NCBI GenBank assembly: GCA_964057225.1
Contig: OZ059898.1
Span: 9,858,001-9,922,000 of the forward strand
DNA length: 64,000 nt
Direction of reading: 5' to 3'
DNA from: Auanema rhodensis
Lineage: Eukaryota > Animalia > Nematoda
The position numbers were made by a program, and so were the translations under genes. Of this stretch, positions 9,110 to 63,999 are shown piece after piece; positions within the stretch are counted from its first letter, which is position 1, and each line of letters begins with the position of its first letter. The notes beneath the pieces were generated by a model. It did no database searches. It was given only the letters and a program-made list of their open reading frames with translations, and was not told the DNA's origin.

Positions 9110-9390
9110 TTATGAGTTGAAACAACGAAATGATTTGAGGAAGGTGACATAATCTACGGGGATAAAATCCGTAGCAGTTATGCTTCCGCCAACTTGACCT
9201 GACTGTCAAATAAGAGCTGAGAAGTCTTATTGCAGATTTACCAGGCTTTTTCGGACTAGTGTGGTCTGTTTTTATATTCAATTTATGTAACCGTTTTTGG
9301 TTTCCCGCAAAATAATATGTAAGATGATCTTTTACGTCTGAATATAATAATTTTTCAAAATTCTAGTCCTGACCACAAATATACAAACTA
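9110..9390 (-). promoter_or_regulatory. Conserved structured RNA element in the 5' leader of element A
   Basis: Blocks of identity with 43381-43690 of element B, a 1-nt indel between blocks (non-coding) and compensatory base-pair changes. Confidence 0.65.
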
Positions 9391-42566: not shown

Positions 42567-42924
42567 CGTTCCATTCGGATGATCAATGCATTACATTCAT
42601 ATGACGAAGCTGTAGCAGGCGGGTTAGAGTCAGAGAATGCGAGACTGAGAGAAGACGACCCGCCCTTTTCCATATTACAACACTTCAGCTTTGCCTCAGG
42701 GACGATCATGGATGGTTGGTCGTTCTCTCTCTGTTCTCTATTAGTTTAACCTTTACTTAGTTATATGTATCTTATTGTAATCACGTAGATATAATAAACC
42801 AATCTTTCTCGAGTCTTATGTTTATCCTTATGCTCCATGTTTAACCGCTACATCTGGAATACTACCACGCTCATCTTGTAGACTCCATTGGTCTGTAAGA
42901 TCGACGCGGGAGCATAACGGAACG
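42567..42924 (+). repeat. 5' LTR of element B
   Basis: Direct repeat of 53871-54228; termini CGTTCC...GGAACG; AATAAA near 42793. Confidence 0.97.
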
Positions 42925-42944
42925 TGGAGGTTCCACCTCGAACT
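42925..42944 (+). promoter_or_regulatory. Primer-binding site (tRNA-Gln), element B
   Basis: TGGAGGTTCCACC-TCGAACT abutting the LTR. Confidence 0.87.
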
Positions 42945-43380
42945 TATCACAATTTTTTTTTCCTTCTCTTTAATGTTTGTGTTGTTAATTCATTTTCAAA
43001 TTTCTTTCATCTCTCTTTTTCTCATACCATCTACCCTATGTCTTAACACAATACGGAGGGGCCAACAACGTTAAATGGGAACAGAGGCAAGGAATCCTTT
43101 TTTTTTTAAAGAAGGATTATACGTTTCGAGATTATTATTTTCCCGTTTGTTCACAAAAATTCTTTCGTCTGAACCTTTAAATTTCGTATCCTTGCTTATA
43201 ACATCTGAAATGCTCTGTTACCCAACCTTGAAGCTTGATGAGGGCTTTAGGCTGAATTAGTGAACAAATTCACCTAAAGTAATTGTTATTTCGTATTTCC
43301 CACGCTTTCTCCTTTTTAAGGATTAATTTTGGCTTCAAGGAAAGAATAACTTCGGTTATATCTTTATATTTCGTGGATGA

Positions 43381-43690
43381 AGTTTGTTTTGCGATCAGGA
43401 CTATTTTATTTTGCGTTACGATTTCGTTCAGACAAATTTTGCTTCTAACATCCTAAATTTATAATCAGTACGCATGAAAAAAAATTACACGGGAAACCTC
43501 ACCAAAAAGGGAGGATTGTTAATTTATAGATCGCTATAGTCCGAAAAATCCTGTTGAAAAATGTTATCTCGAATTTGAATCATGATTAACACAGGTCGTG
43601 TTGGCTAAAGCATATCGGTTTGGATTTTCTCCCCTTACTGAATGTCACCTTCCTCATACCGTTATTGTTGTTCAGAAGCATAAGACTCAC
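43381..43690 (+). promoter_or_regulatory. Conserved structured RNA element in the 5' leader of element B
   Basis: Homologous to 9110-9390 (minus) with covarying stems. Confidence 0.65.
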
Positions 43691-44378
43691 GCATTGAACC
43701 TTATTCCAACTTTAATACTAGTTCTTGTAATATTTAGCCATTTAACTCTGCTTTTATTTCAAAATTCGATTTCTGATCACGAAATACCTACATTCATCAT
43801 TGCGAAACGCTCTTTTGTAAAACTAATATTACGAATCCCATGACTTTTGTTACAACGAAACATGCGAGCTACACCAAATGTATTTGAAAACCAGATTGTA
43901 AAGAAACAAAAATTATTTTTGGTGACAAAAGAGAAATTGGTGCACATTTATTGTTAAACTGCTCTTTTATCAAAAGCATGTTACGAATTACACCATAAGT
44001 TTTGTTGCAAGATGACACACCACATGGCCGAGAAACTAGTGTAACAAAACATAAGTTTAGTCAGCATGAGGAAAATGGTTGCATACAAATCAGTAAAATG
44101 TGCTGTAATTGAACGAATATTACGAATTACACTAAACGTTTTGTAAAATAACAGCTTGGTCACCCCAGATGTTTTGTGAATCAGATTTTCAACTACAGAG
44201 AAAATACGGAGAGCACCAGAGTCCCGATATCACACAGTAGAAGGCGGATCCATCGCCATTGGCCAAGGCATCGACCTCATTCTCACAAGTTGTCGATACG
44301 ACACCGGTCGCTCTCCAAAGCCTTTCTCATTTTGCCTACATCCTCATCCTTATTCACCGCATTCTTTAACGTCTCAAC

Positions 44379-47300
44379 ATCCCACACGTTACCAAGCACT
44401 CAAGGTTTTTTCAAACCAAGAGTTCTAGCAAGGTGGCTAAGAGATTCCATTCAGCCGTACCTATAAGTACGCATTTCGATTCCCAAGACTCAGCTCCCTT
44501 TACCAGAAGTCGAGCTCGAGCTCAAGACGTCGCTATATTAGAAGAGGAGCAGAAAGTCGACAAGAAGCCGGATAATTTCCTTATTCCTACTACTGATTCT
44601 GTCTCACCTACTGAACAACTAGGCGACCCGGACTACGTACCTACTATAGAAGAAGAACTATCAATCATTGTGGAGGAACAAACACCGATCACTCCTAAAA
44701 AGGTACGCTCCTCTAATTCTAATAAAAATAAGAAAAATCAAAACATCAGCGACGCTTCTCTCTCTCTCTCACTAACCGAACCAACCGATTCCCCTTTACT
44801 TTCAAAAACTTCTAGCGCGGGTGGGCTTAGTTCTCTTAGAAACATTGTTACTGATCTTTTTAACCTTTCGCCTAAAGATAAAACTTTCAACACCAAGCGC
44901 AAAAGCAGATATTCATCAGTCCCTAACATTAATATCTCACCAATTCAACCACCTGCACCAAATACCAGTATTCATCAAACTTCTACTCCCATCTTAACAA
45001 CAACAGACTCACTTCCTAAGGCACCCAATAGACCTATTCCATCCACGCAAACAACCCCTATTTTGGAGACCCCACCAATAACAGGTAGAACGATCAAAAT
45101 ACCATCTACCCGTACGAATAACATCATGACGGAAGCTGTTTCCTCACTACCTGGGGCAGGGAAAACAACAATCGCGCAAGCCTTACTTTCGCCTTACTGT
45201 CCAACTTACGACGGCAGTCGTAACTTCCGTGATTTTACGGGTAAATTCAACTTGTTTGCTAATGCCATTGGCCTTGTTATCCCTGAAAGGTTAGCACTTC
45301 TTCCTTTGCTTCTCAAAAATGAAGCAGCAGAAGAAGCTTACAGACAAGTTCCTGAACAACTTAAAACAACTGGTTCGTGGAATGATCTGATTAGAGCACT
45401 AACATCGAAGCTCTGCCCTGAATATAACCAAGACCCTGCACTTATTAACCTTCAAAACACCACGCAAGGGGAATTGACAATTGATGCATACGCCCAAGCA
45501 TTAAGAACAATGGCATTGAGTGCATTTGCATCTGATGACCCACATAAAGATCAAATACTGAGATCAACATTCCTCAGAGGACTTAAAAATTCTCTAAAAC
45601 CAGCTGTGATCCGAGCAAAGCCAAAATCCTTCACAGAAGCGATTGAAGCAGCTCGCTGGGAGGAATCGATAGTGAACCAAACAACAGACACGCAATCGAT
45701 GTTGGTCAACGCTGTGAACAAAGCACTAGCACCCTTTGCGCGTAATGATGAGAGACGAGATAGCCAAACATTTAATCGCAATTATCAACGCGATAACCAA
45801 ATGATAAGAAATAATCAAAATTATCAAAATAATCAAAATTATCAAAATTATCAAAAAAATAAAAACTTTTCTAATTTCAATAATAATCGAAACCGTTACG
45901 GTTCTTTCGCTAATAATAATCGCCGTACAAATTATAACGAACAAGATAATAGGCAATCGAGTTCTGATTGGCATCAAAGAAATTATAATTTTCGTCATAA
46001 CAACCAACGAGGTAGATTCAATAACAACAACGGACAAAGAAGAGTTCAATTCAAAAATCCAAGAGACAACTCAAGAGGAAGAGATAGAAGCTCAACAAGA
46101 ATAAACTCTGTCACCCTTTCGCCTTTGACGCTCACAGTTATCATGGCAATAACAACAGCAATATTCTTGCCCTGTGCATCTACATATCAAATCTGTACAA
46201 GAGCAACAGGAGGCGCATTACTTATGCCACCAACAATCAGAAAATGCAGATTAACAGAGAAAAACCATGTGCTACGTACAGAAGTTCATCTGTACACAAG
46301 AAATCACACAGCACACGAATGGGATGCGTGGCGTTGTTCAGAGGAAGTACACAAGTTATGCGTACGAGACCTGCTATTCCTCCGCGATACGAACAGAACA
46401 ATAAATAGAATACAGCCTATAGGAGAGCGCGAATGCAGACAGGCGATCCGCGATCGCAAGTGGAATAACATAGAACTGCAACGCATTGATAGTATCACCC
46501 AAGCAACTCCGGAGCCCTCCTATGACCCAGCGCGCGCGTTCAACCGCGACGCGTGCGAGGAGCGGTCACGTCTAATATTAGAGCGCGGAGTCATGACCCG
46601 TATGCCTGACGATACAATATTGTCAAACTTAATATTAAACACGGAAGGATGCAATGCACATCATGGTAATTGTGAATCAAGTACATCAATAATAATATGG
46701 GACCCACAAACCACTGCTTCACGTTGTAATTACATCGATATGCATACATATGACGCTATCATTAGTCAAGATACTATTTTAATCCCTAGTACACAATCGG
46801 CACTTATTCTTTCAAGCAAACCAACTCCGAAACCTATTTCTTCTTGCTTCAGGCAGCCAGCGTTCCATACGACATCAGGAAATTATATCATTCTTCCTAA
46901 ATTTCCAAACGACAACAATATAACCACCCTTATTGAAAGAGAGTTCAAAAAGCTGCCGTTTAAAAGACCAAAACGTGCAGTCACCGAAGGATGTTCTTTC
47001 CCACTGGATCAAGATCGGATCAACGAAGTTGAAGATTATGAAACAGTATTGCTTCACGTCTGTCCATATACTTTCCTAAGACCATTAATGAGTAATCCCG
47101 GTATTACTTCAATTATTCCTATAATCAAAGGAAGACGTTTAGTAGATCCAACATACTCTCTAAAGGCATGGATAACATCACATAAAAAAAAATTCGAATT
47201 TTTCTTCAGAATTCAAATAAATGAACATTCTGTTCGACATTTTCTCAAGCAATACGATTTCAGTGATAAAAAAGAAGCTCTGCTATATTATATAGCACAA

Positions 47301-50300
47301 AGAGAATTAGCCATTACTACAAAGGCAGCAATATCATACTTAACATCTGAACAGCTTCTCGAACAAATATCAGATCGTTTGACAGTAATCGAATTCGATG
47401 AAATCATAAGGAAGAAAGAAGGTTCATATCGCGAACGAATTGAAAGCATAGCTCTCAATTTAACCAATACACCAGTTATAATTGAAGAAGGACTGACAGT
47501 TCCATCACGACAAGAAGTCCTACAAACGTTCATACAAATGCCACCAATAAGGAAACGTATACTAACTGACGAGGAAGAGAAGAAAAGCGAATTCATTAAG
47601 GCAACGATCAATTTACTAAGAGAACTAAAAACCCTCACAACAGTACGATGGAATAAAACTGCAGCATTTATTGATGACAGAAAATTTATAAAATTGCCAG
47701 CATCACGACAATTCATGCCAAATACAGATAAACTATTTTATGACAGGAAGAATAATTATGGAATACCGATCGGTCCACACCCTAAGCTGATCAAGCCCAG
47801 CAATCTTTCAAAGAAATTATTATTGGAAATATTTTTACCCCTGCTCAATAATGTAAAAACACCTTATACATCGAGTAGGATAACACAAGAACAACTTCAA
47901 ATCTTAATGGCAGAGAAAAATGAAACAAATTTTCGGCAAATCGCAACGCGGACATCCAGCGTCGCGGCAGGCGGCGCGGCTAGCGGCGCGGTTGTGACAC
48001 CAGTCCAACCTTTGATCGAACAGAAGGGAACAATCCAATCAGTTACCACAATACAGCCGCATATAACGAACAATCCTCACACAAATGCAACAACCACCAC
48101 AAGAGCACCATCATGGAGGCAACAGCCATCAACAACGGCGCCTCACACGACCGCTGCGACAACAGCACGCACAACAACATCAACCGCTCGTTCGCCAACA
48201 ACAACAAGAAGCTATGCCATATACAAAGACGCACAGATTCCAAAAATACAAGAGACAACCGAAGCCTCTCCAACATTGATTCGAAAAAACCGAGCTTCCT
48301 CAACACCATCAGTAGAAACCTCAAATTTAGTGGAAGCAAATGCGAGATACATAGCAACGAAAATTGACTCGGTACAAGAGTTTCGTCAAAATATATCGAA
48401 CAAAATAGCCCAAGATCATTTACAGTATGCTACTACAATGATCCAAGAGGAATTGCAGAAACATTTTGAAGAATCATACGAATCGATTTGCGAGATACAA
48501 AATCGGTATCTGGAATTATGGAAATCAATTCTACAAATTGAACCAACAATCGCAATGCGAACAATACTGGGAAGAGAAGATATAGCCGCACGGTTTGTAG
48601 GCAATGAAATTTTGCATATACATGTATGCCCTACAGTGCTAGAGAAAACCATTTATCACAATCACACCGTAAATGGCACATGCTATCTCGAAACCCCAGT
48701 CTGGACACAAGACGGACAGTTACTGTTTGCAGCACCCGGATCCAAGGATCTTTTACCTCATGGTAAAGAAATAAGCTGTGATCACGTACCAAGAGATATC
48801 TGGTCTAGCGAAGGTGAATGGAAAGGAATTAATGGGACTGCAGACGTCAATCTTGTATCAATGTGGGACGGACTTCATCACGAAAAAATAACACCATTAA
48901 AATTCACCGGAGCTCACTTATACACTAATTTATCGTCTCGTGTATACTCAATGACCACAGCCATAGCTTACGGTGCGAGTTTAGCATCGATTCGTCAGAA
49001 TCACGTTCTTCACACAATTCACAATGATCCAAAGATATCAGCTACATTCAGTGTACTAAAGAAAAGTAGCGACTACATATCGAAAGCTCAAGAATTCACC
49101 AAGAGCACATGGAAGTCATTCATCGATACAATTGCAGGAACGATTGAGCGAACACTAATAACGATCGGTGCAATTACATTATTTACCATCATACTCTTTG
49201 TGATAGGTTTCATTGTAAAGATCTATTTCTTCAAACCAGTAGGCATACCAGTTATGCATATTGCACTCAAAGATCACGACAGTGATCTACCAACATACGA
49301 AGAAACTTTGGAATTAGTTAGTCATCCGGATCAACCGATTCCAAGACACATAATGAAACAATACTATCCATCAATGCTCACATTCATACCAATCGCACTA
49401 CCATTAGTTTGCACGATTTCCAAAAAGAAAGATCAAGCACTACCACTTCTATGGATGACTGTTAATGATAGACTGATCCTAACTTTATGGGACTCAGGTT
49501 CGTCCGTCAGTTACATAAGAATATCGACACTACACTACTTAGCTTTGAATGACTTTGTTAAGAAGAATACATTAAGAGCAACAACAGCGAACGGATCAGA
49601 ATTTGTATTCATTGGTACTATCGACTTAACCGTCGAAATAGCCGGTTACGAAATCGACCATACATTCTTCATATCAGACGACAAAGACTGTCCATCGCCA
49701 GCGTTGATTGGATTAGATTTCATGAAAACACTTGACTGTCAAAACATTGGCATGAAACTAAGACCATACAAAAGAACACTGGAAATTGGAAATCATGTAG
49801 TACCTTTGGCTAGCGGAATTAACGGGGATATTAACAGGATATCAAAAACTGTTAATTTGATAACCTTGGAGCCGCGGAGTCTACTTCCTCGACAAGTTTT
49901 TAATTTCCAAGTCCAATTAGAGAACCCAATCGGAGAAGACTTAATCGCTATGATTAAACCAAACGACAGTACTCCTCTCTCACCTCGATACGACACAGCA
50001 TTTCGCGATGTTAACTCCATCAATATCCAATTCCGGAACAATTCTAAAGAATTCATAGAAATACCGGCCGGCACTGTGATTGCAGAAGCCGAAATAGGAT
50101 CTATACCGGACTATGAAATCTTCTCAACAGAACAACAGTACGACTATATTCCACCAGAAGCAGACTGGGAAGGCAAATTACCTCACTTCCCTGGTGATTT
50201 CATGAAAGAACTTGACCTAAAAGAGGCTGATCTTACGCAACGACAAAAAGACGAACTACGAAACATCATTCGTCAACGTAAGAAGGCATTCCTCAATGAA

Positions 50301-53138
50301 GATAAAAAGATAGGATTGTTCAAAGGACCAGTAGAACACAAGATACCACTACGAACGGATATGGATATGCCAAAGCCACGAATTTCACGTATACCTCTCG
50401 GGAGACAAGAAGAGGTAGAAAGACAAGTCCAAGAAATGCTCGAGCAAGGGATAATAGAACGATCGACATCTTTGTTCAACAGCCCTGTCGTTCTCGTTAA
50501 GAAAAAAGACGAAACATTCCGTTTCGTTACGGATTTCCGAGCCTTAAATAACGTTACAAGAAAACAAACATATGTGATTCCTAACATCTCTGATATCATT
50601 GACTTAGCGGCTGGATCACAATACTTTTCTAATTTTGATCTTGTTTCTGGCTTTTTCCAAATACCATTATTGAAGAAGGATAGACCACTCACATCCTTTA
50701 CCACCAATAGTGGGACTTATCAATACAGGAGAATGCCTATGGGATTATGTGGTGCGCCACATACCTTTCAAACAGCCGTGAGATATCTCCAAAGTAAATG
50801 TAAATGCCGACTATTTGTCTATTTGGACGATTTACTAGTCATATCAGACAGCGCAGAACAACACCTCGAAGACATCAAAGAAGTATTACTCGCTGTAGAA
50901 AGACTAGGATTTAAGATTAAACTCAAGAAATGTTCATTTGCAAGACCAGAAGTGAAATTTCTCGGACTCATTGTCGGAAGAGACGGAGTTAAGCCCGATC
51001 AACAGAAAGTTTCCGCCATCCGCGATTACCCTGCTCCTCAAACACCCACAGGAGTAAGAGCATTCTTAGGAATGGTCGGATTCTTTAGAAAATTTATTAA
51101 AGATTTTGCACATATAGCAAGTCCGCTGTATGACCTTACTAAGCTAGACGCAGACTTCAATTGGACTAGCGAATGTCAACGTTCACTAGATAAGCTAAAG
51201 GAACGACTAATCGAAGCACCGGTACTGAAACCACCACGATCAGACCGAACTTTCATCATTGAAAGTGATGGCAGCAACATCGCCATAGGCGCAGTATTAC
51301 TGCAGCCCGAAGATCCAAACGAACCATTCAAGAACTTACATCCAATTGCTTTCGCAAGTAGGAAATTAGTAAAAGCAGAACGTAACTATGCTCCCATAGA
51401 GATAGAAGCCTTAGGCTTAGTTTACGCTCTAGCACAGTTTCGAACATACATACTTGGATCACATTCAATTTGCATCACCGATCATCGCCCATTGACAAGC
51501 TTACTAACTAGAAGAGACCTATTTGGAAGACTAGCAAAGTTCCAATTGGTCATACAGGAATACGATATTGAGATCAAATATCGAGAAGGCAGATTAAACA
51601 AAGTCTGTGACGCACTCTCTAGATACATTGGAGATAAAGCTAACGATCCAAAGACGTCGAACAAGAAACAAAAGACGAATTCGAAAGAGAAAATTGAGAC
51701 ACAACAAGTAAATGTTGTGAAGTTACCAGAATTCAGCTCAATCCAACAAAATACTCCTTGGATCAAGAGAACAATAGCTGAGATTGAATACAGAACGAAG
51801 AAAAATATGATTCAAAATGATCGTTATTGTGTTATAAACAACTTACTCTACACAAAACCAAGCGTCAAAAGACCTCATCCAGCGTTAATATTGCCATCGG
51901 ATAGTGATATAATTAACAAAATCATTGAAGAATTTCATGAAGACCCAACAATCGGGGCGCATCAAGGAATCAACAAAACAAAAGAAGCCATAGTACGAAG
52001 ATTTTCCTGGACTAACATGCAGAACGACATAGCAAAATACGTAAAACAGTGCATCAAATGTGCACAACGAAAGAAAGATCCTCATGCTATGACCGTACAA
52101 CCGATGGGTCAATTTAACATACCATCAAAACCATTTGAGAGAATACATATGGATATCATGGGACCATTCCCAACATCAAAAAGGAACAACAGCTATGTCC
52201 TCACAATACAAGACTCTTTCTCCAAATGGGCTACAACTATCGCCATACCAACAATTGTTAGTGAAGTTGTCATTGATAGATTCCTCAGAAACTTTGTATA
52301 TGTCTATGGACCACCGAATCGCTTAATAACAGACCGCGGTTCCAACTTCCTATCAAGGAAATTTGAAGACATGTGCGAAAAACTCGGTATCAAACATGAA
52401 TCAACACTCCCACATCAGAAGAATTCCAATGGACAAGTAGAAAGACTTCATAGAACGTTAGAAGAAGGACTCACACATTATCTCAACGAAGATGTCACTG
52501 ATTGGGACATGTTTTTGCCAAAAATTACCTTTGCATTGAACACCACAACGCATGCAACCACAGGAATATCACCATACGTTGTACTATTCGGGAAAGAAAG
52601 CCGTTTGAGATTGGATAAAGATTTATACCCCGAAACAACTGAACCAAAGGAAATTTCAAAGGAGATTGAAAATATTGAGAAAATCCGAAGCAAACAGAAA
52701 ACAATCATTCAAGAAAATTTGGAAAAGCATCAAGAATTAGCAAAAAAGAAACATGATGCTCGATTACGCACTCACGAAAGAGATATACAAGAAGGAGACT
52801 GCGTTATGTTAGCTGTGAAAATGCACAAGCCAGGACAAAAGCTTCGGAAAGCTTATGATGGACCATTTGAAGTTATAAATGTGAAGGGAAACATGGTTCA
52901 AATCAAAAACCTTTTCGGAAAGATTCAAGACGTTCACAAGGACAATCTCAAATTATTTAATCGAGAAACAGATGACGGAATCGCACATAAGCCCAGTACA
53001 CGTACAGACAGCTCAGACGATGACAGCGATATCGAAATCATAGAGGTTATCAACGGAAACAACAACGAGGAAGACTCTTATGACGAACCAGAAGACCTTT
53101 CGGATACAAATTGGCTACCATCAAGAAAAAACCATTAA
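44379..53138 (+). CDS. Gag-Env-Pol polyprotein of element B (~2900 aa): Gag, gB-like fusion glycoprotein, aspartic protease, RT, RNase H, integrase
   Basis: ORF-track ORF 44433-53138; the frame is open from 44370 and conserved with A from 44376; first ATG at 45126. Motifs: LWDSGS (49491), YLDD (50820), RNase H ESDGS/TDH/DALSR, IN H-H-C-C (~51936), HMD/TDRG/ER, GPF. Confidence 0.95.
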   Translation: MPHVTKHSRFFQTKSSSKVAKRFHSAVPISTHFDSQDSAPFTRSRARAQDVAILEEEQKVDKKPDNFLIPTTDSVSPTEQLGDPDYVPTIEEELSIIVEEQTPITPKKVRSSNSNKNKKNQNISDASLSLSLTEPTDSPLLSKTSSAGGLSSLRNIVTDLFNLSPKDKTFNTKRKSRYSSVPNINISPIQPPAPNTSIHQTSTPILTTTDSLPKAPNRPIPSTQTTPILETPPITGRTIKIPSTRTNNIMTEAVSSLPGAGKTTIAQALLSPYCPTYDGSRNFRDFTGKFNLFANAIGLVIPERLALLPLLLKNEAAEEAYRQVPEQLKTTGSWNDLIRALTSKLCPEYNQDPALINLQNTTQGELTIDAYAQALRTMALSAFASDDPHKDQILRSTFLRGLKNSLKPAVIRAKPKSFTEAIEAARWEESIVNQTTDTQSMLVNAVNKALAPFARNDERRDSQTFNRNYQRDNQMIRNNQNYQNNQNYQNYQKNKNFSNFNNNRNRYGSFANNNRRTNYNEQDNRQSSSDWHQRNYNFRHNNQRGRFNNNNGQRRVQFKNPRDNSRGRDRSSTRINSVTLSPLTLTVIMAITTAIFLPCASTYQICTRATGGALLMPPTIRKCRLTEKNHVLRTEVHLYTRNHTAHEWDAWRCSEEVHKLCVRDLLFLRDTNRTINRIQPIGERECRQAIRDRKWNNIELQRIDSITQATPEPSYDPARAFNRDACEERSRLILERGVMTRMPDDTILSNLILNTEGCNAHHGNCESSTSIIIWDPQTTASRCNYIDMHTYDAIISQDTILIPSTQSALILSSKPTPKPISSCFRQPAFHTTSGNYIILPKFPNDNNITTLIEREFKKLPFKRPKRAVTEGCSFPLDQDRINEVEDYETVLLHVCPYTFLRPLMSNPGITSIIPIIKGRRLVDPTYSLKAWITSHKKKFEFFFRIQINEHSVRHFLKQYDFSDKKEALLYYIAQRELAITTKAAISYLTSEQLLEQISDRLTVIEFDEIIRKKEGSYRERIESIALNLTNTPVIIEEGLTVPSRQEVLQTFIQMPPIRKRILTDEEEKKSEFIKATINLLRELKTLTTVRWNKTAAFIDDRKFIKLPASRQFMPNTDKLFYDRKNNYGIPIGPHPKLIKPSNLSKKLLLEIFLPLLNNVKTPYTSSRITQEQLQILMAEKNETNFRQIATRTSSVAAGGAASGAVVTPVQPLIEQKGTIQSVTTIQPHITNNPHTNATTTTRAPSWRQQPSTTAPHTTAATTARTTTSTARSPTTTRSYAIYKDAQIPKIQETTEASPTLIRKNRASSTPSVETSNLVEANARYIATKIDSVQEFRQNISNKIAQDHLQYATTMIQEELQKHFEESYESICEIQNRYLELWKSILQIEPTIAMRTILGREDIAARFVGNEILHIHVCPTVLEKTIYHNHTVNGTCYLETPVWTQDGQLLFAAPGSKDLLPHGKEISCDHVPRDIWSSEGEWKGINGTADVNLVSMWDGLHHEKITPLKFTGAHLYTNLSSRVYSMTTAIAYGASLASIRQNHVLHTIHNDPKISATFSVLKKSSDYISKAQEFTKSTWKSFIDTIAGTIERTLITIGAITLFTIILFVIGFIVKIYFFKPVGIPVMHIALKDHDSDLPTYEETLELVSHPDQPIPRHIMKQYYPSMLTFIPIALPLVCTISKKKDQALPLLWMTVNDRLILTLWDSGSSVSYIRISTLHYLALNDFVKKNTLRATTANGSEFVFIGTIDLTVEIAGYEIDHTFFISDDKDCPSPALIGLDFMKTLDCQNIGMKLRPYKRTLEIGNHVVPLASGINGDINRISKTVNLITLEPRSLLPRQVFNFQVQLENPIGEDLIAMIKPNDSTPLSPRYDTAFRDVNSINIQFRNNSKEFIEIPAGTVIAEAEIGSIPDYEIFSTEQQYDYIPPEADWEGKLPHFPGDFMKELDLKEADLTQRQKDELRNIIRQRKKAFLNEDKKIGLFKGPVEHKIPLRTDMDMPKPRISRIPLGRQEEVERQVQEMLEQGIIERSTSLFNSPVVLVKKKDETFRFVTDFRALNNVTRKQTYVIPNISDIIDLAAGSQYFSNFDLVSGFFQIPLLKKDRPLTSFTTNSGTYQYRRMPMGLCGAPHTFQTAVRYLQSKCKCRLFVYLDDLLVISDSAEQHLEDIKEVLLAVERLGFKIKLKKCSFARPEVKFLGLIVGRDGVKPDQQKVSAIRDYPAPQTPTGVRAFLGMVGFFRKFIKDFAHIASPLYDLTKLDADFNWTSECQRSLDKLKERLIEAPVLKPPRSDRTFIIESDGSNIAIGAVLLQPEDPNEPFKNLHPIAFASRKLVKAERNYAPIEIEALGLVYALAQFRTYILGSHSICITDHRPLTSLLTRRDLFGRLAKFQLVIQEYDIEIKYREGRLNKVCDALSRYIGDKANDPKTSNKKQKTNSKEKIETQQVNVVKLPEFSSIQQNTPWIKRTIAEIEYRTKKNMIQNDRYCVINNLLYTKPSVKRPHPALILPSDSDIINKIIEEFHEDPTIGAHQGINKTKEAIVRRFSWTNMQNDIAKYVKQCIKCAQRKKDPHAMTVQPMGQFNIPSKPFERIHMDIMGPFPTSKRNNSYVLTIQDSFSKWATTIAIPTIVSEVVIDRFLRNFVYVYGPPNRLITDRGSNFLSRKFEDMCEKLGIKHESTLPHQKNSNGQVERLHRTLEEGLTHYLNEDVTDWDMFLPKITFALNTTTHATTGISPYVVLFGKESRLRLDKDLYPETTEPKEISKEIENIEKIRSKQKTIIQENLEKHQELAKKKHDARLRTHERDIQEGDCVMLAVKMHKPGQKLRKAYDGPFEVINVKGNMVQIKNLFGKIQDVHKDNLKLFNRETDDGIAHKPSTRTDSSDDDSDIEIIEVINGNNNEEDSYDEPEDLSDTNWLPSRKNH
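46110..49232 (+). other. env: Env region within the polyprotein: signal peptide, Cys-rich class III (herpes gB-like) ectodomain, TM anchor
   Basis: Hydrophobic LTLTVIMAITTAIFLPCAST|YQIC; RPKR at 46965; CEIQNRYLELWKSILQIEPTIAMRTILGREDIAARFVGNEILHIHVC at 48489; many N-x-S/T sequons; TM 49152-49232. Confidence 0.85.
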
Positions 53139-53513: not shown

Positions 53514-53589
53514 AACTTTTTATCTACACTTGTTGGAGCGTTATGCTTAAAAACTTTTTATCTACACTTGTTGGAGCGTTATGCTTAAA
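53514..53589 (+). repeat. 38-bp tandem duplication in the 3' UTR of element B
   Basis: AACTTTTTATCTACACTTGTTGGAGCGTTATGCTTAAA occurs twice. Confidence 0.9.
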
Positions 53590-53870: not shown

Positions 53871-54228
53871 CGTTCCATTCGGATGATCAATGCATTACAT
53901 TCATATGACGAAGCTGTAGCAGGCGGGTTAGAGTCAGAGAATGCGAGACTGAGAGAAGACGACCCGCCCTTTTCCATATTACAACACTTCAGCTTTGCCT
54001 CAGGGACGATCATGGATGGTTGGTCGTTCTCTCTCTGTTCTCTATTAGTTTAACCTTTACTTAGTTATATGTATCTTATTGTAATCACGTAGATATAATA
54101 AACCAATCTTTCTCGAGTCTTATGTTTATCCTTATGCTCCATGTTTAACCGCTACATCTGGAATACTACCACGCTCATCTTGTAGACTCCATTGGTCTGT
54201 AAGATCGACGCGGGAGCATAACGGAACG
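53871..54228 (+). repeat. 3' LTR of element B
   Basis: Direct repeat of 42567-42924. Confidence 0.97.
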
Positions 54229-55025: not shown

Positions 55026-55096
55026 TGCATCGGCCGGCAATCGAACCCGGGTCGCCCGCGTGGCAGGCGAGCATTCTACCACTGAACCACCGATGC
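55026..55096 (-). tRNA. tRNA-Gly(GCC), T-stem variant
   Basis: GATTGCCGG instead of GATTCCCGG. Confidence 0.75.
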
Positions 55097-55889
55097 TTCC
55101 AAAATGTTAGATTGTTTCCGAAAAATTATGAAAAGTCAAGTTCTACTGATTTGAAGAGAATTGTAAGTTTTAGAAAAGAATTGAAGTTCAGCTATCTCTA
55201 CTATTAACTGATTATCGGCTAAAATAAGGTAACAGTTTTTATTGAAAGTTTCCATGATTAAGATTAAACAAAGAAAAAAAATCAAAGAGAAACACTTCTT
55301 GTTTACTTATTTAATTATAATACTTGAAATTCCAAAAACAGTAGAATAAAATAGAGAAAGCGACGAAAAAAGTTGAACGATTTGAAGAGAATTGTAAGTT
55401 TTAGAAAAGAATTAAAGTTCAGCTATCTCTACTATTAACTGATTATCGGCTAAAATAAGGTAACAGTTTTTATTGAAAGTTTCCATGATTAAGATTAAAC
55501 AAAGAAAAAAATCAAAGAGAAACACTTCTTGTTTACTTACTTGATTATAATACTTGAAATTCCAAAAACAGTAAAATAAAATTGAAAAAGCGACAAAAAC
55601 AGTTGAACGATTTGAAGACAATTGTAAGTTGAAGAATAAAATTAAAGTTTAGCTCTCTCTACTATTAACTGAATGTCGGCTAAAATATGGTAACAGTTTT
55701 TATTAAAAGTTTCCATGATTAAGATTAAACAAAGAAAAAAAATCAAAGAGAAACACTTCTTGTTTACTAATTTGATTATAACACTTGAAATTCCAAAAAA
55801 AGTAAAATAAAACTGTGAAAGCGGGTAAAACTGTTGAACTAAAACAGTCTTTATAAAATATAAATGATATATTTTTATAAAAGTGAAGT

Positions 55890-55960
55890 TGCATCGGCCG
55901 GGAATCGAACCCGGGTCGCCCGCGTGGCAGGCGAGCATTCTACCACTGAACCACCGATGC
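55890..55960 (-). tRNA. tRNA-Gly(GCC)
   Basis: Consensus copy. Confidence 0.95.
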
Positions 55961-56982
55961 TTCGAAAATGTTAGATTGTTTCCGAAAAATTATGAAAAGT
56001 CAAGTTCTACTGATTTGAAGAGAATTGTAAGTTTTAGAAAATAATTAAAAATTAGTTCTCTCTACTATTAACTGATTGTCGGCTAAAATATGGTAACAGT
56101 TTTTATAAAAAGTTTCCATGATTAGGATTAAACAAAAAAAAGAATTAAAGAGAAACACTTTTTGTTTACTTATTTGATTATAATACTTGAAATTCCAAAA
56201 ACAGTAGAATAAAATTGAGAAATCGACAAAAACAGTTGAACGATTTGAAGAGAATTGTAAGTTTTAGAAAAGAATTAAAGTTCAGCTATCTCTACTATTA
56301 ACTGACTATCGGCTAGAATAAGGTAACAGTTTTTATTGAAAGTTTCCATGATTAAGATTGAACAAAAAAAAATTAGAGAGAAACACTTCTTGTTTACTTA
56401 CTTGATTATAATACTTGAAATTCCAAAAACAGTAAAATAAAATTGAGAAAGCGACAAAAACAGTTGAACGATTTGAAGACAATTGTAAGTTTAAGAAAAG
56501 AATTAAAGTTTAGCTTTGTCTACTATTAACTGATTATCGGCTGAAATATGGTGACAGTTTTTTTTTAAAAGTTTCCATGATTAAGATTAAACAAAGAAAA
56601 AAAATCAAAGAGAAACACTTCTTGTTTACTAATTTGATTATAACACTTGAAATTCCAACAAAAGTAAAGTAAAACTGTTAAAGCGAGTAAAACTGTTGAA
56701 CAATTTGAAGACAATTGTAAGTTGAAAAAAAAAATTAAAGTTTAGCTCTCTCTACTATTAACTGAATGTCGGCTAAAATATGGTAACAGTTTTTATTAAA
56801 AGTTTCCATGATTAAGATTAAACAAAGAAAAAAAATCAAAGAGAAACACTTCTTGTTTACTAATTTGATTATAACACTTGAAATTCCAAAAAAAGTAAAA
56901 TAAAACTGTGAAAGCGGGTAAAACTGTTGAACTAAAACAGTCTTTATAAAATATAAATGATATATTTTTATAAAAGTGAAGT

Positions 56983-57053
56983 TGCATCGGCCGGGAATCG
57001 AACCCGGGTCGCCCGCGTGGCAGGCGAGCATTCTACCACTGAACCACCGATGC
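56983..57053 (-). tRNA. tRNA-Gly(GCC)
   Basis: Consensus copy. Confidence 0.95.
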
Positions 57054-57848
57054 TTCGAAAATGTTAGATTGTTTCCGAAAAATTATGAAAAGTCAAGTTC
57101 TACTGATTTGAAGAGAATTGTAAGTTTTAGAAAATAATTAAAAATTAGTTCTCTCTACTATTAACTGATTGTCGGCTAAAATATGGTAACAGTTTTTATA
57201 AAAAGTTTCCATGATTAGGATTAAACAAAAAAAAGAATTAAAGAGAAACACTTTTTGTTTACTTATTTGATTATAATACTTGAAATTCCAAAAACAGTAG
57301 AATAAAATTGAGAAATCGACAAAAACAGTTGAACGATTTGAAGAGAATTGTAAGTTCAAGAAAAGAATTAAAGTTTAGCTTTGTCTACTATTAACTGATT
57401 ATCGGCTGAAATATGGTGACAGTTTTTTATTAAAAGTTTCCATGATTAAGATTAAACAAAGAAAAAAAAATCAAAGAGAAACACTTCTTGTTTACTTATT
57501 TGATTATAACACTTGAAATTCCAACAAAAGTAAAGTAAAACTGTTAAAGCGAGTAAAACTGTTGAACGATTTGAAGACAATTGTAAGTTGAAGAAAAAAA
57601 TTAAAGTTTAGCTCTCTCTACTATTAACTGAATGTCGGCTGAAATAAGGTAACAGTTTTTTTTAAAAGTTTCCATGATTTAGATTAAACAAAGAAAAAAA
57701 ATCAAAGAGAAATACTTCTTGTTTACTTATTTGATTATAACACTTGAAAATCCAACAAAAGTAAAATAAAACTGTGAAAGCGGGTAAAACTGTTGAACTA
57801 AAACAGTCTTTATAAAATATAAATGATATATTTTTATAAAAGTGAAGT

Positions 57849-57919
57849 TGCATCGGCCGGGAATCGAACCCGGGTCGCCCGCGTGGCAGGCGAGCATTCT
57901 ACCACTGAACCACCGATGC
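57849..57919 (-). tRNA. tRNA-Gly(GCC)
   Basis: Consensus copy. Confidence 0.95.
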
Positions 57920-58712
57920 TTCGAAAATGTTAGATTGTTTCCGAAAAATTATGAAAAGTCAAGTTCTACTGATTTGAAGAGAATTGTAAGTTTTAGAAAA
58001 GAATTGAAGTTCAGCTATCTCTACTATTAACTGATTATCGGCTAAAATAAGGTAACAGTTTTTATTGAAAGTTTCCATGATTAAGATTAAACAAAGAAAA
58101 AAAATCAAAGAGAAACACTTCTTGTTTACTTATTTAATTATAATACTTGAAATTCCAAAAACAGTAGAATAAAATAGAGAAAGCGACGAAAAAAGTTGAA
58201 CGATTTGAAGAGAATTGTAAGTTTTAGAAAAGAATTAAAGTTCAGCTATCTCTACTATTAACTGATTATCGGCTAAAATAAGGTAACAGTTTTTATTGAA
58301 AGTTTCCATGATTAAGATTAAACAAAGAAAAAAATCAAAGAGAAACACTTCTTGTTTACTTACTTGATTATAATACTTAAAATTCCAAAAACAGTAAAAT
58401 AAAATTGAAAAAGCGACAAAAACAGTTGAACGATTTGAAGACAATTGTAAGTTGAAGAATAAAATTAAAGTTTAGCTCTCTCTACTATTAACTGAATGTC
58501 GGCTAAAATATGGTAACAGTTTTTATTAAAAGTTTCCATGATTAAGATTAAACAAAGAAAAAAAATCAAAGAGAAACACTTCTTGTTTACTAATTTGATT
58601 ATAACACTTGAAATTCCAAAAAAAGTAAAATAAAACTGTGAAAGCGGGTAAAACTGTTGAACTAAAACAGTCTTTATAAAATATAAATGATATATTTTTA
58701 TAAAAGTGAAGT

Positions 58713-58783
58713 TGCATCGGCCGGGAATCGAACCCGGGTCGCCCGCGTGGCAGGCGAGCATTCTACCACTGAACCACCGATGC
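58713..58783 (-). tRNA. tRNA-Gly(GCC)
   Basis: Consensus copy. Confidence 0.95.
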
Positions 58784-59456: not shown

Positions 59457-60092
59457 TTATCCTTCTTCCTCCTCGATTTGTCCCAGCTGGAAGTCGGTCG
59501 CGGGTTGCCGGTCGGCGACCGTCCATATGTGGAACAGGCTGACGTCTGTCAGCAGTTCCGTCGCCTGGCCTGCTATCATCATTTTTTTTCTTTTCTGGTC
59601 CGGAGTGGTGGCGCGCGTCGCCATTAGTATCCTTAAGGCCTGGCTGATCAGGTCTCCCGCCTTCCTAATCGACTGGTTAGTCGATTCCATCATACTTTCT
59701 TCTGTCCAGCTCTTGTGGATCTCTTCCGCGGCCCATCTTGGGATGAGATCCGCGCTAGCTACATTTTCGGAGGCTGGATAGCCTAGATCTTCGCGTAGTT
59801 TGTTGATGGTGGCCTTGGTGCGGGCAGTGGCCTCGGACCAGTTTTGCGCCATTTTGGCCATCTCTTCTTCATCATTGTTACATGAACATTGTAACCTTTC
59901 CAGAGTCTCTATTAATAGAGTAACTCTGGCTAAATTCTCCGAAAATGATTGGAGGATTCTTATCTTTTTAGTCCTGTTGTTTGTTGTCTCCAGTTGTTGT
60001 AGTTCTATCTGGAGCGAATGTATCTTGATCCACTTTTCCTTGATCATCGCGATAGGTGTCTCGCAGGCTGGTGGAGGGAAGACGAGTGCCAT
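59457..60092 (-). CDS. Accessory ORF downstream of pol in element C (211 aa from the ATG; predicted helical/coiled-coil; unknown function)
   Basis: MALVFPPPACETPIAMIKEKW...; a GC-richer open frame flanked by AT-rich spacers, with heptad-like amphipathic helices. Confidence 0.65.
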   Translation of the reverse strand: MALVFPPPACETPIAMIKEKWIKIHSLQIELQQLETTNNRTKKIRILQSFSENLARVTLLIETLERLQCSCNNDEEEMAKMAQNWSEATARTKATINKLREDLGYPASENVASADLIPRWAAEEIHKSWTEESMMESTNQSIRKAGDLISQALRILMATRATTPDQKRKKMMIAGQATELLTDVSLFHIWTVADRQPATDFQLGQIEEEEG

Positions 60093-60312
60093 TCTTGTGG
60101 TGCTGGGAGTTTTTCTGCTTGAGGTGAATTTTGAGCTTATATAGGGTGAAAAAAATAGGTAAGTATATATTTTGTGATACATAGATATTAAGATTGATGA
60201 TTGGGGAAAACATTGTTTTTGTTGTTTGGGTAGCAGATAGAATGAATTATTGTAAATTAATAAAAAAAAATTAATGAATAAAGTTATTTTCCCAAAAAGT
60301 TTCTATTTTTGA

Positions 60313-63300
60313 TTAAATGGTTGTTGTTGCTCCAATCACTGTCGAAGGTCGTTTCTTTCGTACGACCGGTGTTTTTGGTGAGTTGAAATGAGCATCAGGT
60401 ATCTGAGAGCGTGTGAGCCTATTTTTAGACTCTAAGGTGGGTATCACGCTGTTGTACCTTATTGGTACGTGGAATGGTTTTGGAGCGGTTATAGGATTTT
60501 TGTCTTCTATTCCAAGTGCCAACTTGAGGGCTGAGCTCCATCTTTTGGTTGTGGGTATCTCTTTACGTCTTTCTTCATAGAGCTCTTGCCTTGTTTCTTC
60601 TCCAATTTTATCGACAAGTTGTTGAAATAAGTTGTTTTCGTCCTTGTCCGTAGCTAACTTGTCTGCCGTATTCGGTCCGGTTTCTGGTTGATAATTGTCC
60701 TGTTGTGTTTCCCGCGTAATTTCCTGTGGTGCTATTGTTTCTTGTGGTGTTATTGAAGGTCGGCTTTGTTCGTAGAATTCGTCCTCGTTGTCGCTTTCTG
60801 AATCAGAGATTGATGTTGCGGTGGGCGTGCTATTTTTAGCGCGCGTATTTTCCGTATCCTGCTGTGAGCCGTCGCTATAAATGGCAGGTGCGGAGTCGTT
60901 TCTGTTGTGCTCGCTTTCTTCGACGTTGTTATCGTCGGGTGGAAAGTATCTTATATTATTCTTGTGAGCTATAATCGTATTCCCTTCGCTATCTGCTAAT
61001 ATTACGTTATTTCCTTTTATTTCCTTGATTATATATGGTCCATCGCTTGTTGTTTGTAATTTATTTGCTGGCTTTGCTCGCTTGACGAGTGCTCTATTTT
61101 CCACGAAGATCTCTCTTTCCTGCGTCCTGTGATTTTCGTCGTATTTCTTCTTCATTCTTTCATTATTCAACTCTATCCTTTCATGAATCTTCTCGTGTAA
61201 GTCCGGGGCGTTCTTGATTGTGGCTCCTGGAGTTTCTAAGTCCTTATCTATTGGTAACCGAGCTGTTTGTCCAAACAGACAGTCGTAGGGTGGTGTGCGA
61301 GTAGTAGCGTTTGGTAGTCGATTCATCGTAAAAACAATTTTTGGTAGAATAATATCCCAATTGTCTTGGTCGTCATTAACGTAGGAAGTTAATGCTTCTT
61401 CCAGTGTTCTGTGTAGCCGTTCCACTTGACCATTTGCGTTTTTGTAGTATGGCATAGTTGTGTGATGTTCCGATCCAAGATTATCGCACATGCTTTTGAA
61501 TTCGTGTGAGACAAAGTTTGATCCATTGTCTGTGATGATTTTCTTTGGGGGTCCGAAGACATAGAATAAGTGTGTCATAATAGCTGATACTATTTCTTCT
61601 GATGTCTGACGAATTAATGGTATCGCTATAATCCATTTGGAAAATGCGTCCTGTATAGATAAAATGTATCTATTATCCTTTGCAGTTCTAGGTAATGGTC
61701 CTAGTATGTCCATGTGAACTCGTTCCCATGGATGTGTCACTGTTGGGAAGTTTCTCATTGGTTCAACTGTGGCTTCATGTGGGTTATTTTTCCTCTTTGC
61801 ACAGTCGAGACATCTGTTCACATATCTTGTGATATCATCCTGTATTCCTGTCCAAGTGTACCGTCGCAAAATGGAGTCTTGAGTCTTATTGATTCCAAGA
61901 TGTGCTCCGAGAATTGGGTCTTTATGAAATTTTTCTATAATTGGTATTGTGATTGCTGGATCGTTTGGTAGAATGGCTCGCGGAGTTTGTAAAGCTGTTT
62001 TGGGTTTTGCATACAGAGCGTCGTTCACAACGATATATCGATCCATTAGTTGCCTTCCTGCTGTTTTGTTCCGAATCTTTTCTTTTGTTTCCATGATCCA
62101 TTCTGTATTGCCTTGAATGGTCCGAAGGTCCGTAATAGTTGAAATAGTCGAGATTTTGTGTGTAGGAGTTTCTTTTGGTTTCTTCTTTCTTTCCTTGGCT
62201 TCGTTGACTTCGTCTTCAAAATATCGTGAAAGTGCATCACATACGCTGTTAAGACGTCCTGGGCGATACACTATCTCGATGTCGTATTCTTGTAATACGA
62301 TTTGAAATTTTGCTAGCCTGCCAATGAGATCTTTTCTTGTCATGAGGCTAGTAAGAGGCCTGTGATCGGTAATGATTCTTATTGGTGTGCCTAGTATGTA
62401 AGTCCGAAATTGATGTACTGCGAAAGTGAGTGCTAAGGCTTCGATTTCAATTGGCGGGTAATTTCGTTCGGCTTTGTTCAGTTTTCGGCTGGCAAATGCA
62501 ATTGGGTGAAGTGGTTCCTTGTCGTCTTTAGCCTGTAATAGTACTGCGCCAACTGCAATTATACTTCCATCGCTTTCAATGACGTAAGGTCGTTTTGCTA
62601 TAGGTGCTTGTAGTACAGGAGCTTGACAGAGTATCTGTTTAAGTTGTTGAAATGCTTGTTCTTCTGCATCTCCCCATTTGAAAGCTGTATCCTTTTTCGT
62701 GAGCTCATAAAGTGGTGACGCAATGCCTGCGGCATTTCTAATAAATCTGCGAAAGTAGTTCACAACTCCCATAAATGCTCGAACTCCTGTTATTGATTTC
62801 GGTCTTGGATAATCTCGGATTGCTTTTACTTTCTGAGGGTCTGGTTTTATTCCTTCGTGTCCAACAATGAATCCTAGGAATTTGACTTCTTGTTGTCCAA
62901 AGGTACATTTCTTAAGCTTGATTTTTAATCCTAGCTCTGCTGATGCGTTCAGTACTTCGTCGATATCTTGTAAATGTTTCGTCGTTGATTCCGATATGAG
63001 AAGTAGATCGTCGAGATAGACGAAGAGCTTGCATCGTACGTGTTGTTGTAAATATCGTACAGCATTTTGGAATGTGTGTGGAGCTCCGCAGAGTCCCATC
63101 GGCATTCTGCAGTATTGATAAGTTCCGCTCGTAGTAGTGAATGCGGTGAGGTGTCTATCTTCTGATCTAAGAGGGATTTGAAAGAATCCAGATACTAGAT
63201 CAAAGTTACTGAAGATACGCGCTCCGGCTGCTAGGTCCAAGATGTCTTGAATGTTAGATATAACGTAGATTTGTTTTTGCGTTATTGCGTTGAGTGCTCG

Positions 63301-63999
63301 AAAATCAGTCACAAATCTGTACGTTTTATCCTTTTTCTTGACCAATATTACGGGACTGGTAGTCATAGAAAAAGATGGCTCAATTATTCCTTGTTCTAAC
63401 ATTTCCTCCACTTGTTTTTCTACTTCTTCTTGTTGTGATAGAGGTATTCTGTACGTGATCTTGAAAGATGGAACTTTTCCTTCGATGATCGGGATGCTAT
63501 GTTCCACTGGTCCTTTGAAAAGTCCAATATTGCGATCCTCGTTTAAGAAAGCTTCCTTGTTTCTGAGCACTATTTTCTTTAACTGTTGTCTCTCTAGCTG
63601 AGTAAAGATGGTGTTTGTTACATCGAGGTCTTTTATAAAGTCCTCTGGGAAGTATGGTAGTTGATCTTCCCATCTTGCTTCTGGTGGCACATATTGTCCT
63701 TTTTGCTCCTCCGTGTTTTTCGGGATAGCGTAAGCTGTTCCAATGCCTTGATTTGTCTGTACTACAATTGTGTCTGGAGAGATATTTGTAGCAAATATCT
63801 GAACTCCATATCCCGTTGGGGTGAAAGTAGTAGGGGCGAAACTCATTTTTCCTGTCCGCTGTGAGCTTCTAATGAAAGCTTGTTCGTAAGAGGCGGGATC
63901 GTCTACTTCCAATGTAAGCGATCTGGTTTCTCCTGGGTAGAACTGTTTGGTTTCCAGGCTTACGACGTGTGCTATCGTGTGGTTCTCAGTCCATGGCGC
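60313..63999 (-). CDS. pol: Pol of element C (partial): RT, RNase H and integrase with a long C-terminal tail
   Basis: ORF track 1199 aa; the frame stays open to the window edge. Motifs YLDD, ESDGS, HHCC, HMD/TDNG/ER, GPY. Confidence 0.95.
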   Translation of the reverse strand, partial: APWTENHTIAHVVSLETKQFYPGETRSLTLEVDDPASYEQAFIRSSQRTGKMSFAPTTFTPTGYGVQIFATNISPDTIVVQTNQGIGTAYAIPKNTEEQKGQYVPPEARWEDQLPYFPEDFIKDLDVTNTIFTQLERQQLKKIVLRNKEAFLNEDRNIGLFKGPVEHSIPIIEGKVPSFKITYRIPLSQQEEVEKQVEEMLEQGIIEPSFSMTTSPVILVKKKDKTYRFVTDFRALNAITQKQIYVISNIQDILDLAAGARIFSNFDLVSGFFQIPLRSEDRHLTAFTTTSGTYQYCRMPMGLCGAPHTFQNAVRYLQQHVRCKLFVYLDDLLLISESTTKHLQDIDEVLNASAELGLKIKLKKCTFGQQEVKFLGFIVGHEGIKPDPQKVKAIRDYPRPKSITGVRAFMGVVNYFRRFIRNAAGIASPLYELTKKDTAFKWGDAEEQAFQQLKQILCQAPVLQAPIAKRPYVIESDGSIIAVGAVLLQAKDDKEPLHPIAFASRKLNKAERNYPPIEIEALALTFAVHQFRTYILGTPIRIITDHRPLTSLMTRKDLIGRLAKFQIVLQEYDIEIVYRPGRLNSVCDALSRYFEDEVNEAKERKKKPKETPTHKISTISTITDLRTIQGNTEWIMETKEKIRNKTAGRQLMDRYIVVNDALYAKPKTALQTPRAILPNDPAITIPIIEKFHKDPILGAHLGINKTQDSILRRYTWTGIQDDITRYVNRCLDCAKRKNNPHEATVEPMRNFPTVTHPWERVHMDILGPLPRTAKDNRYILSIQDAFSKWIIAIPLIRQTSEEIVSAIMTHLFYVFGPPKKIITDNGSNFVSHEFKSMCDNLGSEHHTTMPYYKNANGQVERLHRTLEEALTSYVNDDQDNWDIILPKIVFTMNRLPNATTRTPPYDCLFGQTARLPIDKDLETPGATIKNAPDLHEKIHERIELNNERMKKKYDENHRTQEREIFVENRALVKRAKPANKLQTTSDGPYIIKEIKGNNVILADSEGNTIIAHKNNIRYFPPDDNNVEESEHNRNDSAPAIYSDGSQQDTENTRAKNSTPTATSISDSESDNEDEFYEQSRPSITPQETIAPQEITRETQQDNYQPETGPNTADKLATDKDENNLFQQLVDKIGEETRQELYEERRKEIPTTKRWSSALKLALGIEDKNPITAPKPFHVPIRYNSVIPTLESKNRLTRSQIPDAHFNSPKTPVVRKKRPSTVIGATTTI

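Follow-up and report, generated by a model that had tools for sequence, protein, structure and literature searches.

Two diverged copies of a retroelement leader share a closed, folded RNA domain of ~600 nt, located at 43055-43653 on the plus strand in the element that we call B and at 9677-9140 on the minus strand in element A, both within one 64-kb window (the whole stretch of DNA analysed). In B the domain is closed by two long-range helices, N and M, in the minimum-energy as well as in the centroid fold. In both copies it forms a conserved, structured, sense-strand RNA between the primer binding site (PBS) and gag, as is found in leaders of the retroviral type. Our leading interpretation, held tentatively and at somewhat less than an even chance, is that by analogy with such leaders the domain would be a cis-acting scaffold through which the full-length genomic RNA is recognised, in dimerisation and in packaging by Gag.

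Structured leaders that select genomic RNA are well studied in a few retroviruses and in the yeast Ty elements, and in a limited literature search we found no prior description of the leaders of envelope-carrying Ty3/gypsy elements. The candidate domain would be the first of its sort for the invertebrate elements of this group, with defined helices and clear boundaries.

Carrier elements

Element B is bounded by two long terminal repeats (LTRs) on the plus strand, at 42567-42924 and 53871-54228, which form a direct repeat 100% identical over 358 nt; the two ends of each LTR read CGTTCC...GGAACG. The LTR pair is flanked by AAAT on both sides, and a purine run precedes the 3' LTR. Because its LTRs are identical, the insertion of element B looks recent.

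Directly 3' of the LTR, both copies carry the primer binding site TGGAGGTTCCACC (B 42925-42937, plus strand; A 9789-9777, minus strand), whose complement is the last 12 nt given for tRNA-Gln(UUG/CUG) in supplement 1 of PMC13524379. Two of the four element rows given there with this 3' end have an exact match, and both belong to gB-type elements of Caenorhabditis species. The host is therefore probably a nematode or similar, and an insect host, our initial guess, was abandoned.

A single unbroken frame of 2922 codons (44370-53138, plus strand) encodes gag, env and pol in element B, with matches to Retrotrans_gag, a class III viral fusion glycoprotein (PF24664, PF00606), aspartyl protease, RVT_1, RNase H and integrase. 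The fusion glycoprotein is of the gB or rhabdovirus-G-like kind and lies in frame with gag and pol. The frame of element A, a diverged relative of B, extends on the minus strand from 8064 to 1, where it runs off the window. Protein identity between the two ranges from 21 to 81% in bins of 150 alignment columns, and reaches 74% in the gag core.

The carrier combines LTRs and a PBS with gag, PR-RT-RH-IN and, placed between gag and pol, a fusion glycoprotein of class III, and so is an errantivirus-like Ty3/gypsy element of the GAG-ENV-POL, gB-type group. The same gene order with a gB-type ENV is reported for Nematoda, Bryozoa and Platyhelminthes in the available part of PMC13524379. The present elements resemble those described there in gene order, in the class III fusion protein and in a tRNA-Gln site identical to that of two Caenorhabditis elements, but differ in that gag, env and pol are read without a break in the 2922-codon frame. 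Neither 'UTR' nor 'splic' occurs in the main text of PMC13524379, which therefore does not treat the leader.

Helices of the leader domain

A covarying, pseudoknot-like RNA structure had originally been predicted in the interval 43381-43690. Searching for the partners of the conserved blocks and folding A and B separately gave a domain larger than this; the predicted stems are present, but the interval covers just the 3' half of the closed domain. The domain begins 130 nt 3' of the tRNA-Gln primer binding site, and the separate minimum-energy folds of A and B have helices N, M, K and J, the hairpins H0 and H1, the CCTG hairpin and stem-loop P at homologous places.

Helix N pairs GGAGG (43055-59) with CCTTC (43648-52) in B, and 9677-73 with 9144-40 in the fold of A. 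Each copy forms 5 bp, one of which differs on a single side (G.U to A-U), and the register of N is shifted by one in the fold of B; its CCUUC strand sits within the block ATGTCACCTTCCTCA. Helix M joins GGCCAACA (43060-67) to TGTTGGCT (43599-606; UGUUGGCU as RNA) in B, and 9672-63 to 9196-87 in the fold of A. Two of its eight column pairs are changed on both sides and one on one side only. CAGGTC and GTTGGC are separated by a dinucleotide that varies (GU in B, AA in A), and its partner ~540 nt upstream varies with it. The conserved blocks GTTGGC and CACCTTCC are thus accounted for by the long-range helices N and M.

Every other block that had been listed as shared by the two leaders was found in both copies in the alignment, and the blocks can be assigned to helices: the 3' strands of M, N and L are GTTGGC, CCTTC and TTCAGAC, respectively, and AAGCATA and ATGT make up P. 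In helix L, GTCTGAAC (43167-74) pairs with GTTCAGAC (43426-33) over 8 bp in B, so that TTCAGAC meets GUCUGAA ~260 nt upstream; the A counterpart (9578-68/9345-35) has 11 bp, and one pair shows a compensatory change from C-G to U-A.

Among the local elements, helix K (9656-46/9550-39 in A) is common to both minimum-energy folds. Stem-loop H1 (43244-51/43273-80) and its extension (43253-58/43267-72) appear in both folds with a probability of 0.93-0.99, and the A fold has H1 at 9516-02/9493-81; H1 contains one compensatory change and the extension, by reading of the folds, two more. The hairpin closed by CCTG/CAGG (B 43550-43595; A 9246-9197) is also present in both folds, its closing 4 bp being invariant. 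Hairpin H0 has a 7-bp stem in A against 11 bp in B, with largely different letters.

Stem-loop P is located between the 3' strands of M and N. In B, GCATAT (43610-15) faces GAATGT (43640-45) and five of the six column pairs form, and in A, 9183-78 faces 9152-47 with 6 bp. The GCAUA of the block AAGCATA pairs with UAUGU, and the conserved ATG at 43642, the only conserved one in the leader, is thereby buried. The upper part of the stem holds GGATTTTCTCCCC and GGATTTTnTCCCC. The latter and CGGGAAACC, two invariant blocks to which no partner was assigned, could pair with each other (B 43490-43498/43622-43634; A 9307-9299/9170-9158) as GGGA/UCCC plus AA/UU, the single variable base n forming a bulge; there is no covariation at this place.

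Helices N, M, L, H1 and P contain G.U pairs, which read from the opposite strand would become A.C mismatches; this points to an RNA on the sense strand.

Three crossing helices

The two stems on which the prediction was based, X and Y, are present in both leaders, with the strand sequences exact in all cases. Helix X pairs GCGATC (43391-96) with GATCGC (43529-34) in B and GTGGTC (9376-71) with GACCAC (9266-61) in A, over 6 bp, two of which are changed on both sides (C-G to U-A and A-U to G-C). Helix Y pairs GGACTAT (43398-404) with ATAGTCC (43536-42) in B and GGACTAG (9369-63) with CTAGTCC (9259-53) in A, over 7 bp with one compensatory change (U-A to G-C). The claim of compensatory changes in both stems is borne out by these three double changes, with no broken pair in either helix. 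The duplex energies of X and Y lie between -9.7 and -11.8 kcal/mol.

The order is non-nested, X and Y being separated by 1 nt on the 5' strand and X' and Y' by 1 nt on the 3' strand, where the one-base linker varies (T in B, A in A); the description as a pseudoknot or a mutually exclusive switch remains apt. Helix L crosses both stems. L, X and Y all lie inside M, cross one another, and each carries compensatory changes. The adjacent crossing stems X and Y are unusual and open to direct probing.

In a pseudoknot, one base cannot span 6 bp of the shallow groove. Both X/Y linkers being of 1 nt, the coaxial stack of a classical H-type pseudoknot is excluded by this groove-crossing rule. On these geometric grounds the arrangements that remain would be a side-by-side one with crossovers half a turn apart, alternation of the two stems, or intermolecular pairing.

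In nested folds X and L have a low probability (≤0.05), and L is absent from the nested minimum-energy folds. In the context from the PBS to the open reading frame, the probability of helix Y is 0.91 in A and 0.02 in B, and that of helix M 0.89 in A versus 0.001 in B; in the context of the domain, M reaches 0.92 in B and 0.95 in A. When the states were forced, M with Y gave -137.1 and M with X -135.3 kcal/mol in B (a gap of 1.8), and -129.7 and -128.6 kcal/mol in A (a gap of 1.1). This near-equal cost of X and Y, 1.1-1.8 kcal/mol in the energy model, fits a switch, of which it would be no proof.

A bolder reading, to which we give a small chance, is that L, X and Y within the closed 600-nt leader form an X/Y half-turn, double-crossover-like pseudoknot or a multi-state switch that would gate packaging versus translation, alongside an AUG-less gag frame that needs non-canonical initiation; with the same small chance, such an X/Y arrangement would be of a kind not catalogued for any retroelement.

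The sequence ATTTTG, which follows Y in both copies and resembles an Sm site, is likely a chance occurrence in AT-rich sequence, and no Rfam snRNA matched there.

Covariation and fold stability

The comparative evidence comes from two full sequences, copies A and B. In a MAFFT alignment, eight helices with 50 pairs have 98 of 99 cells paired, and in seven pairs both sides have changed. Pair 7 of Y, which is also compensated, falls in a gap of that alignment and is omitted from the count. When the 3' partners were slid by 1-3 columns, pairing fell to 30-40% and the double changes to 0-1, and shuffles equalled the observed eight-helix values in 8 of 500 cases. The structure predicted by RNAalifold has 71 pairs, includes N, M, H1, X and the CCTG hairpin, and shows changes on both sides in 18 of its pairs.

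Real A shares with the fold of B 23 pairs in exact columns and 47 within one column. In 120 versions with random bases placed at the changed sites the mean was 3.6 shared pairs (9.4 within one column), with maxima of 18 (36), and none of the 120 retained the shared fold of real A.

Column-based tests gave p values from 0.003 to 0.19, depending on the filter. With 13 random substitutions in 116 reliably aligned columns, 697 of 200000 runs produced at least three compensated pairs within intact helices, and 540 of 200000 produced a helix with at least two. Over the whole alignment of 623 columns, with the changed positions fixed and the new base random, the counts were 529 of 5000 for helices of at least 6 bp and 250 of 5000 for at least 7 bp. 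When helices were required to have 60% or more of their columns conserved, the count was 59 of 20000; a threshold of 70%, which excludes X and M, gave 3831 of 20000.

Fold energies differ between copies and lengths. The predicted interval 43381-43690 folds no better than shuffled sequence in B (z +0.94), and its A counterpart modestly better (z -1.96). For the whole domain z is -1.29 in B, with 2 of 20 shuffles equally good, and -2.68 in A, where none of 100 shuffles folds as well.

These figures bear on the explanation that the blocks have no RNA function, being DNA-level regulatory sequences (an enhancer or insulator, as in other gypsy-type leaders) in which compensation arose by chance. There are only two sequences to compare, the unfiltered column tests give p values of 0.05-0.11 and one filtered test 0.19, and the fold energy of B is ordinary, all of which leaves room for it. 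We nevertheless consider it very unlikely, given that no random-substitution version keeps an equal shared fold, that the seven both-side changes all but vanish in the slid controls, that G.U pairs specific to one strand are present, and that the dinucleotide next to GTTGGC covaries with so distant a partner. In our judgement the covariation signal is real, but it is based on two sequences.

Related sequences

The structure had not been recognised as a known Rfam family, and no family matches it. Against Rfam 15, the whole window yielded tRNAs only at gathering scores, and the leaders of B and A gave only weak, chance-level matches at E values up to 10, of which the best scored 21.1 bits where the gathering score is 30. 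Viral, metagenome and genome contig collections held no match to the leader motif GGATTTTNTCCCC(5-9)ATGTCACCTTCC. The gag alignment found no relative among 132 pattern matches in viral contigs, and 57 pattern matches in metagenome contigs came down to two loci, one of which is bacterial DNA by its open reading frames; the other, 24% identical and on a 1-kb contig, was left unused. A protein search with the gag end of the frame gave no match among proteins of 1607-5114 or of 240-765 residues.

In addition, contigs at least 80% alike from four public runs, with three coded organism labels, were compared with the leaders. Their summed depth over the four runs, which is not a measure of copy number, peaks on the conserved blocks (43242-83, 43389-430, 43515-56 and 43599-682), which suggests that related copies share those blocks. 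The contig comparison points to many copies of the leader, belonging to three or more sequence types. All strands of X and Y are without listed variants in these contigs except in one rare type, where position 2 of Y (9368) changes from G to A; its partner at 9254 has no listed change, and the second pair of Y is therefore broken. A third sequence type that covers 9123-9267 retains the X'-Y' strand of A; in its upper stem P, the pair 9171/9157 is compensated and the pair at 9172 is broken. Most B-like contigs have AT at 43640-41, with which P would be a perfect 6-bp stem if their 5' strand is as in B.

ATG-free zone and translation

The leader is rich in ATGs upstream of an ATG-free zone, as had been noted: 20 ATGs in B and 16 in A are followed by gaps of 957 and 1325 nt, respectively. 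In both copies the zone (B 44172-45125, plus strand; A 8186-6865, minus strand) lacks ATG in all three frames as far as the conserved Met of gag (45126 in B), and none of 2000 shuffles was free of ATGs. The gag frame is open without an ATG for 252 (B) and 400 (A) codons before the first conserved Met. An ATG-free kilobase with a long open gag frame ahead of the Met in both copies poses a sharp question of translation. The zone argues that ribosomes would reach gag by scanning an RNA that lacks the ATG-rich leader, or by bypassing that leader. The N-terminal extension of gag may begin by a non-AUG start, by splicing or by trans-splicing; by eye, no good splice donor common to A and B was found after the conserved ATG, nor a common acceptor ahead of the point where the gag frame becomes conserved.

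Conservation in the gag frame starts abruptly, with the 16 identical bases TCAACATCCCACACGT, two codons past the in-frame stop of B. In this conserved start region (B 44374-44450; A 7925-7848), TCAACATCCCACACGT is followed by the hairpin-like GGTTTTTTCAAACC, and in both copies AAGGTGGC, farther downstream, is able to base-pair with GTCACCTT from the ATG block of the leader.

In the original prediction an IRES or a shunt was seen as fitting. The domain, as an internal entry site or as a take-off structure, would then bring ribosomes to the ATG-free zone and the gag frame without their having to scan the ATG-rich leader. Besides the distribution of ATGs and the long open stretch of the gag frame, the conserved ATG at the end of the domain, which opens a short frame (13 and 24 codons), speaks for this. 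The positions do not fit: the domain ends at 43653 (B) and 9140 (A) and the zones start at 44172 and 8186, and the intervening stretch of 510 nt in B and about 950 nt in A is unconserved and holds 10 and 11 ATGs. In addition, the conserved ATG is buried in stem P, no Rfam IRES family matched at E values up to 10, and a helix that would close a shunt was not found, the best end-to-end duplex being matched by 90 of 300 shuffles in B and 53 of 300 in A. Because the domain is far from the zone, with ATGs in between and no bridging helix, an IRES or shunt is not supported, and we regard translation control by the domain as unlikely.

The shunt leaders of caulimoviruses are long and AUG-rich, with short upstream frames and a structured region before the main frame. 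The present leaders resemble them in length, in the abundance of AUGs and short upstream frames, and in having structure ahead of the main frame, but have no take-off/landing hairpin, and their domain does not adjoin the ATG-free zone.

In the unconserved part of the B leader, about three loose repeats of a motif TTACGAAT...TTTTGT can be seen by eye at 43780-44150; the counterpart in A (about 8800-8420) is different and has a higher G+C content.

Possible role in packaging

Retroviral packaging signals lie between the primer binding site and gag. The reading of the domain as a packaging and dimerisation scaffold is suggested by its position between PBS and gag, its long-range closure, the buried AUG and the alternative pairings, a combination that most resembles the leaders of retroviruses and Ty1. 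A packaging element had been named as a candidate in the original prediction too, and is plausible. If the retroviral analogy holds, the fold would mark the unprocessed genomic RNA for Gag, and X and Y might alternate as a switch with two registers or form a compact side-by-side pseudoknot.

The HIV-1 5' leader has a long-range U5:AUG pairing and a conformational switch between monomer and dimer. The domain is like it in being a structured region between PBS and gag, in having a long-range helix that pairs an upstream segment with an AUG region, and in containing internal alternative pairings of near-equal stability. In contrast, there is no relation in sequence or in Rfam, the AUG buried here is not the start of gag, and the domain, ~600 nt long, lies 700-1300 nt before the gag frame and has no conserved palindrome for dimer initiation. 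A conserved loop palindrome of this kind was not found in the comparison of A and B. The CCTG hairpin of B holds the 10-nt palindrome AATCATGATT at 43578-87, which has no counterpart there in A, and the X'-Y' strand holds palindromes of 6 nt in both copies, CTATAG (43534-39) in B and ACTAGT (9260-55) in A, shifted by one base and mostly paired.

A second comparison is with the long-range pseudoknot (TIPIRT domain) near the 5' end of the RNA of Ty1, also an LTR retrotransposon, which the available parts of PMC3592414, PMC5454406 and PMC6844567 tie to packaging, dimerisation and reverse transcription. The Ty1 domain differs in that it extends over part of the coding region of gag and comes from a yeast element of the copia type; in the present leaders three helices cross, two of them with adjacent strands joined by one-base linkers, and function would be assigned by analogy.

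The Ty1 pseudoknot, with its link to reverse transcription as well as packaging, also gives a precedent for a scaffold of reverse transcription, in which the fold would position the tRNA-Gln primer and the PBS for initiation or strand transfer. The distance of 130 nt from PBS to domain would suit this, as would the fact that GGAGG of the PBS and GGAGG/GAAGG of the N 5' strand are both able to pair with CCTTC in the ATG block. The likeness of the N/M 5' strands to the PBS amounts, by hand count, to 9 of 13 positions in B and 8 of 13 in A, and we estimate that about three such matches are expected by chance in a leader of this size, so that the likeness is within chance. We take a reverse-transcription scaffold to be quite unlikely.

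We consider it decidedly unlikely that the domain serves nuclear export or evasion of splicing, as a fold bound by a viral or host factor in the manner of Rev with the RRE or of CERV with Cer1 RNA. A nematode precedent exists in the LTR element Cer1, whose genomic RNA requires the element-encoded CERV for export, according to the available part of PMC10309623, and the PBS of the present leaders matches gB-type elements of nematodes; Cer1, however, is of a different family and has no env.

Genomic setting

Between 11.7 and 58.8 kb the minus strand of the window has 39 Rfam matches to tRNA-Gly(GCC), which make up a tandem gene array that the retroelements interrupt and flank. The array occupies 11761-42333 and 55026-58783 (minus strand) in units of roughly 0.6-1.9 kb, and three of the 39 matches are short, low-scoring copies (33.9 bits). 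Element A is found at the edge of the array; element B occupies one of its spacers, at a distance of 233 bp upstream of a tRNA gene. From these positions, the elements may integrate near Pol III genes.

Just 5' of the 3' LTR of element B there are two exact tandem repeats of 38 nt (53514-53589), each containing a TATGCTT that is complementary to AAGCATA in the leader; for A, the 3' end is outside the window. The 3' part of a third related element is found at 59457-63999 on the minus strand; its PR-RT-RH-IN frame, of 1228 codons within the window, continues past the edge, and its leader lies outside.
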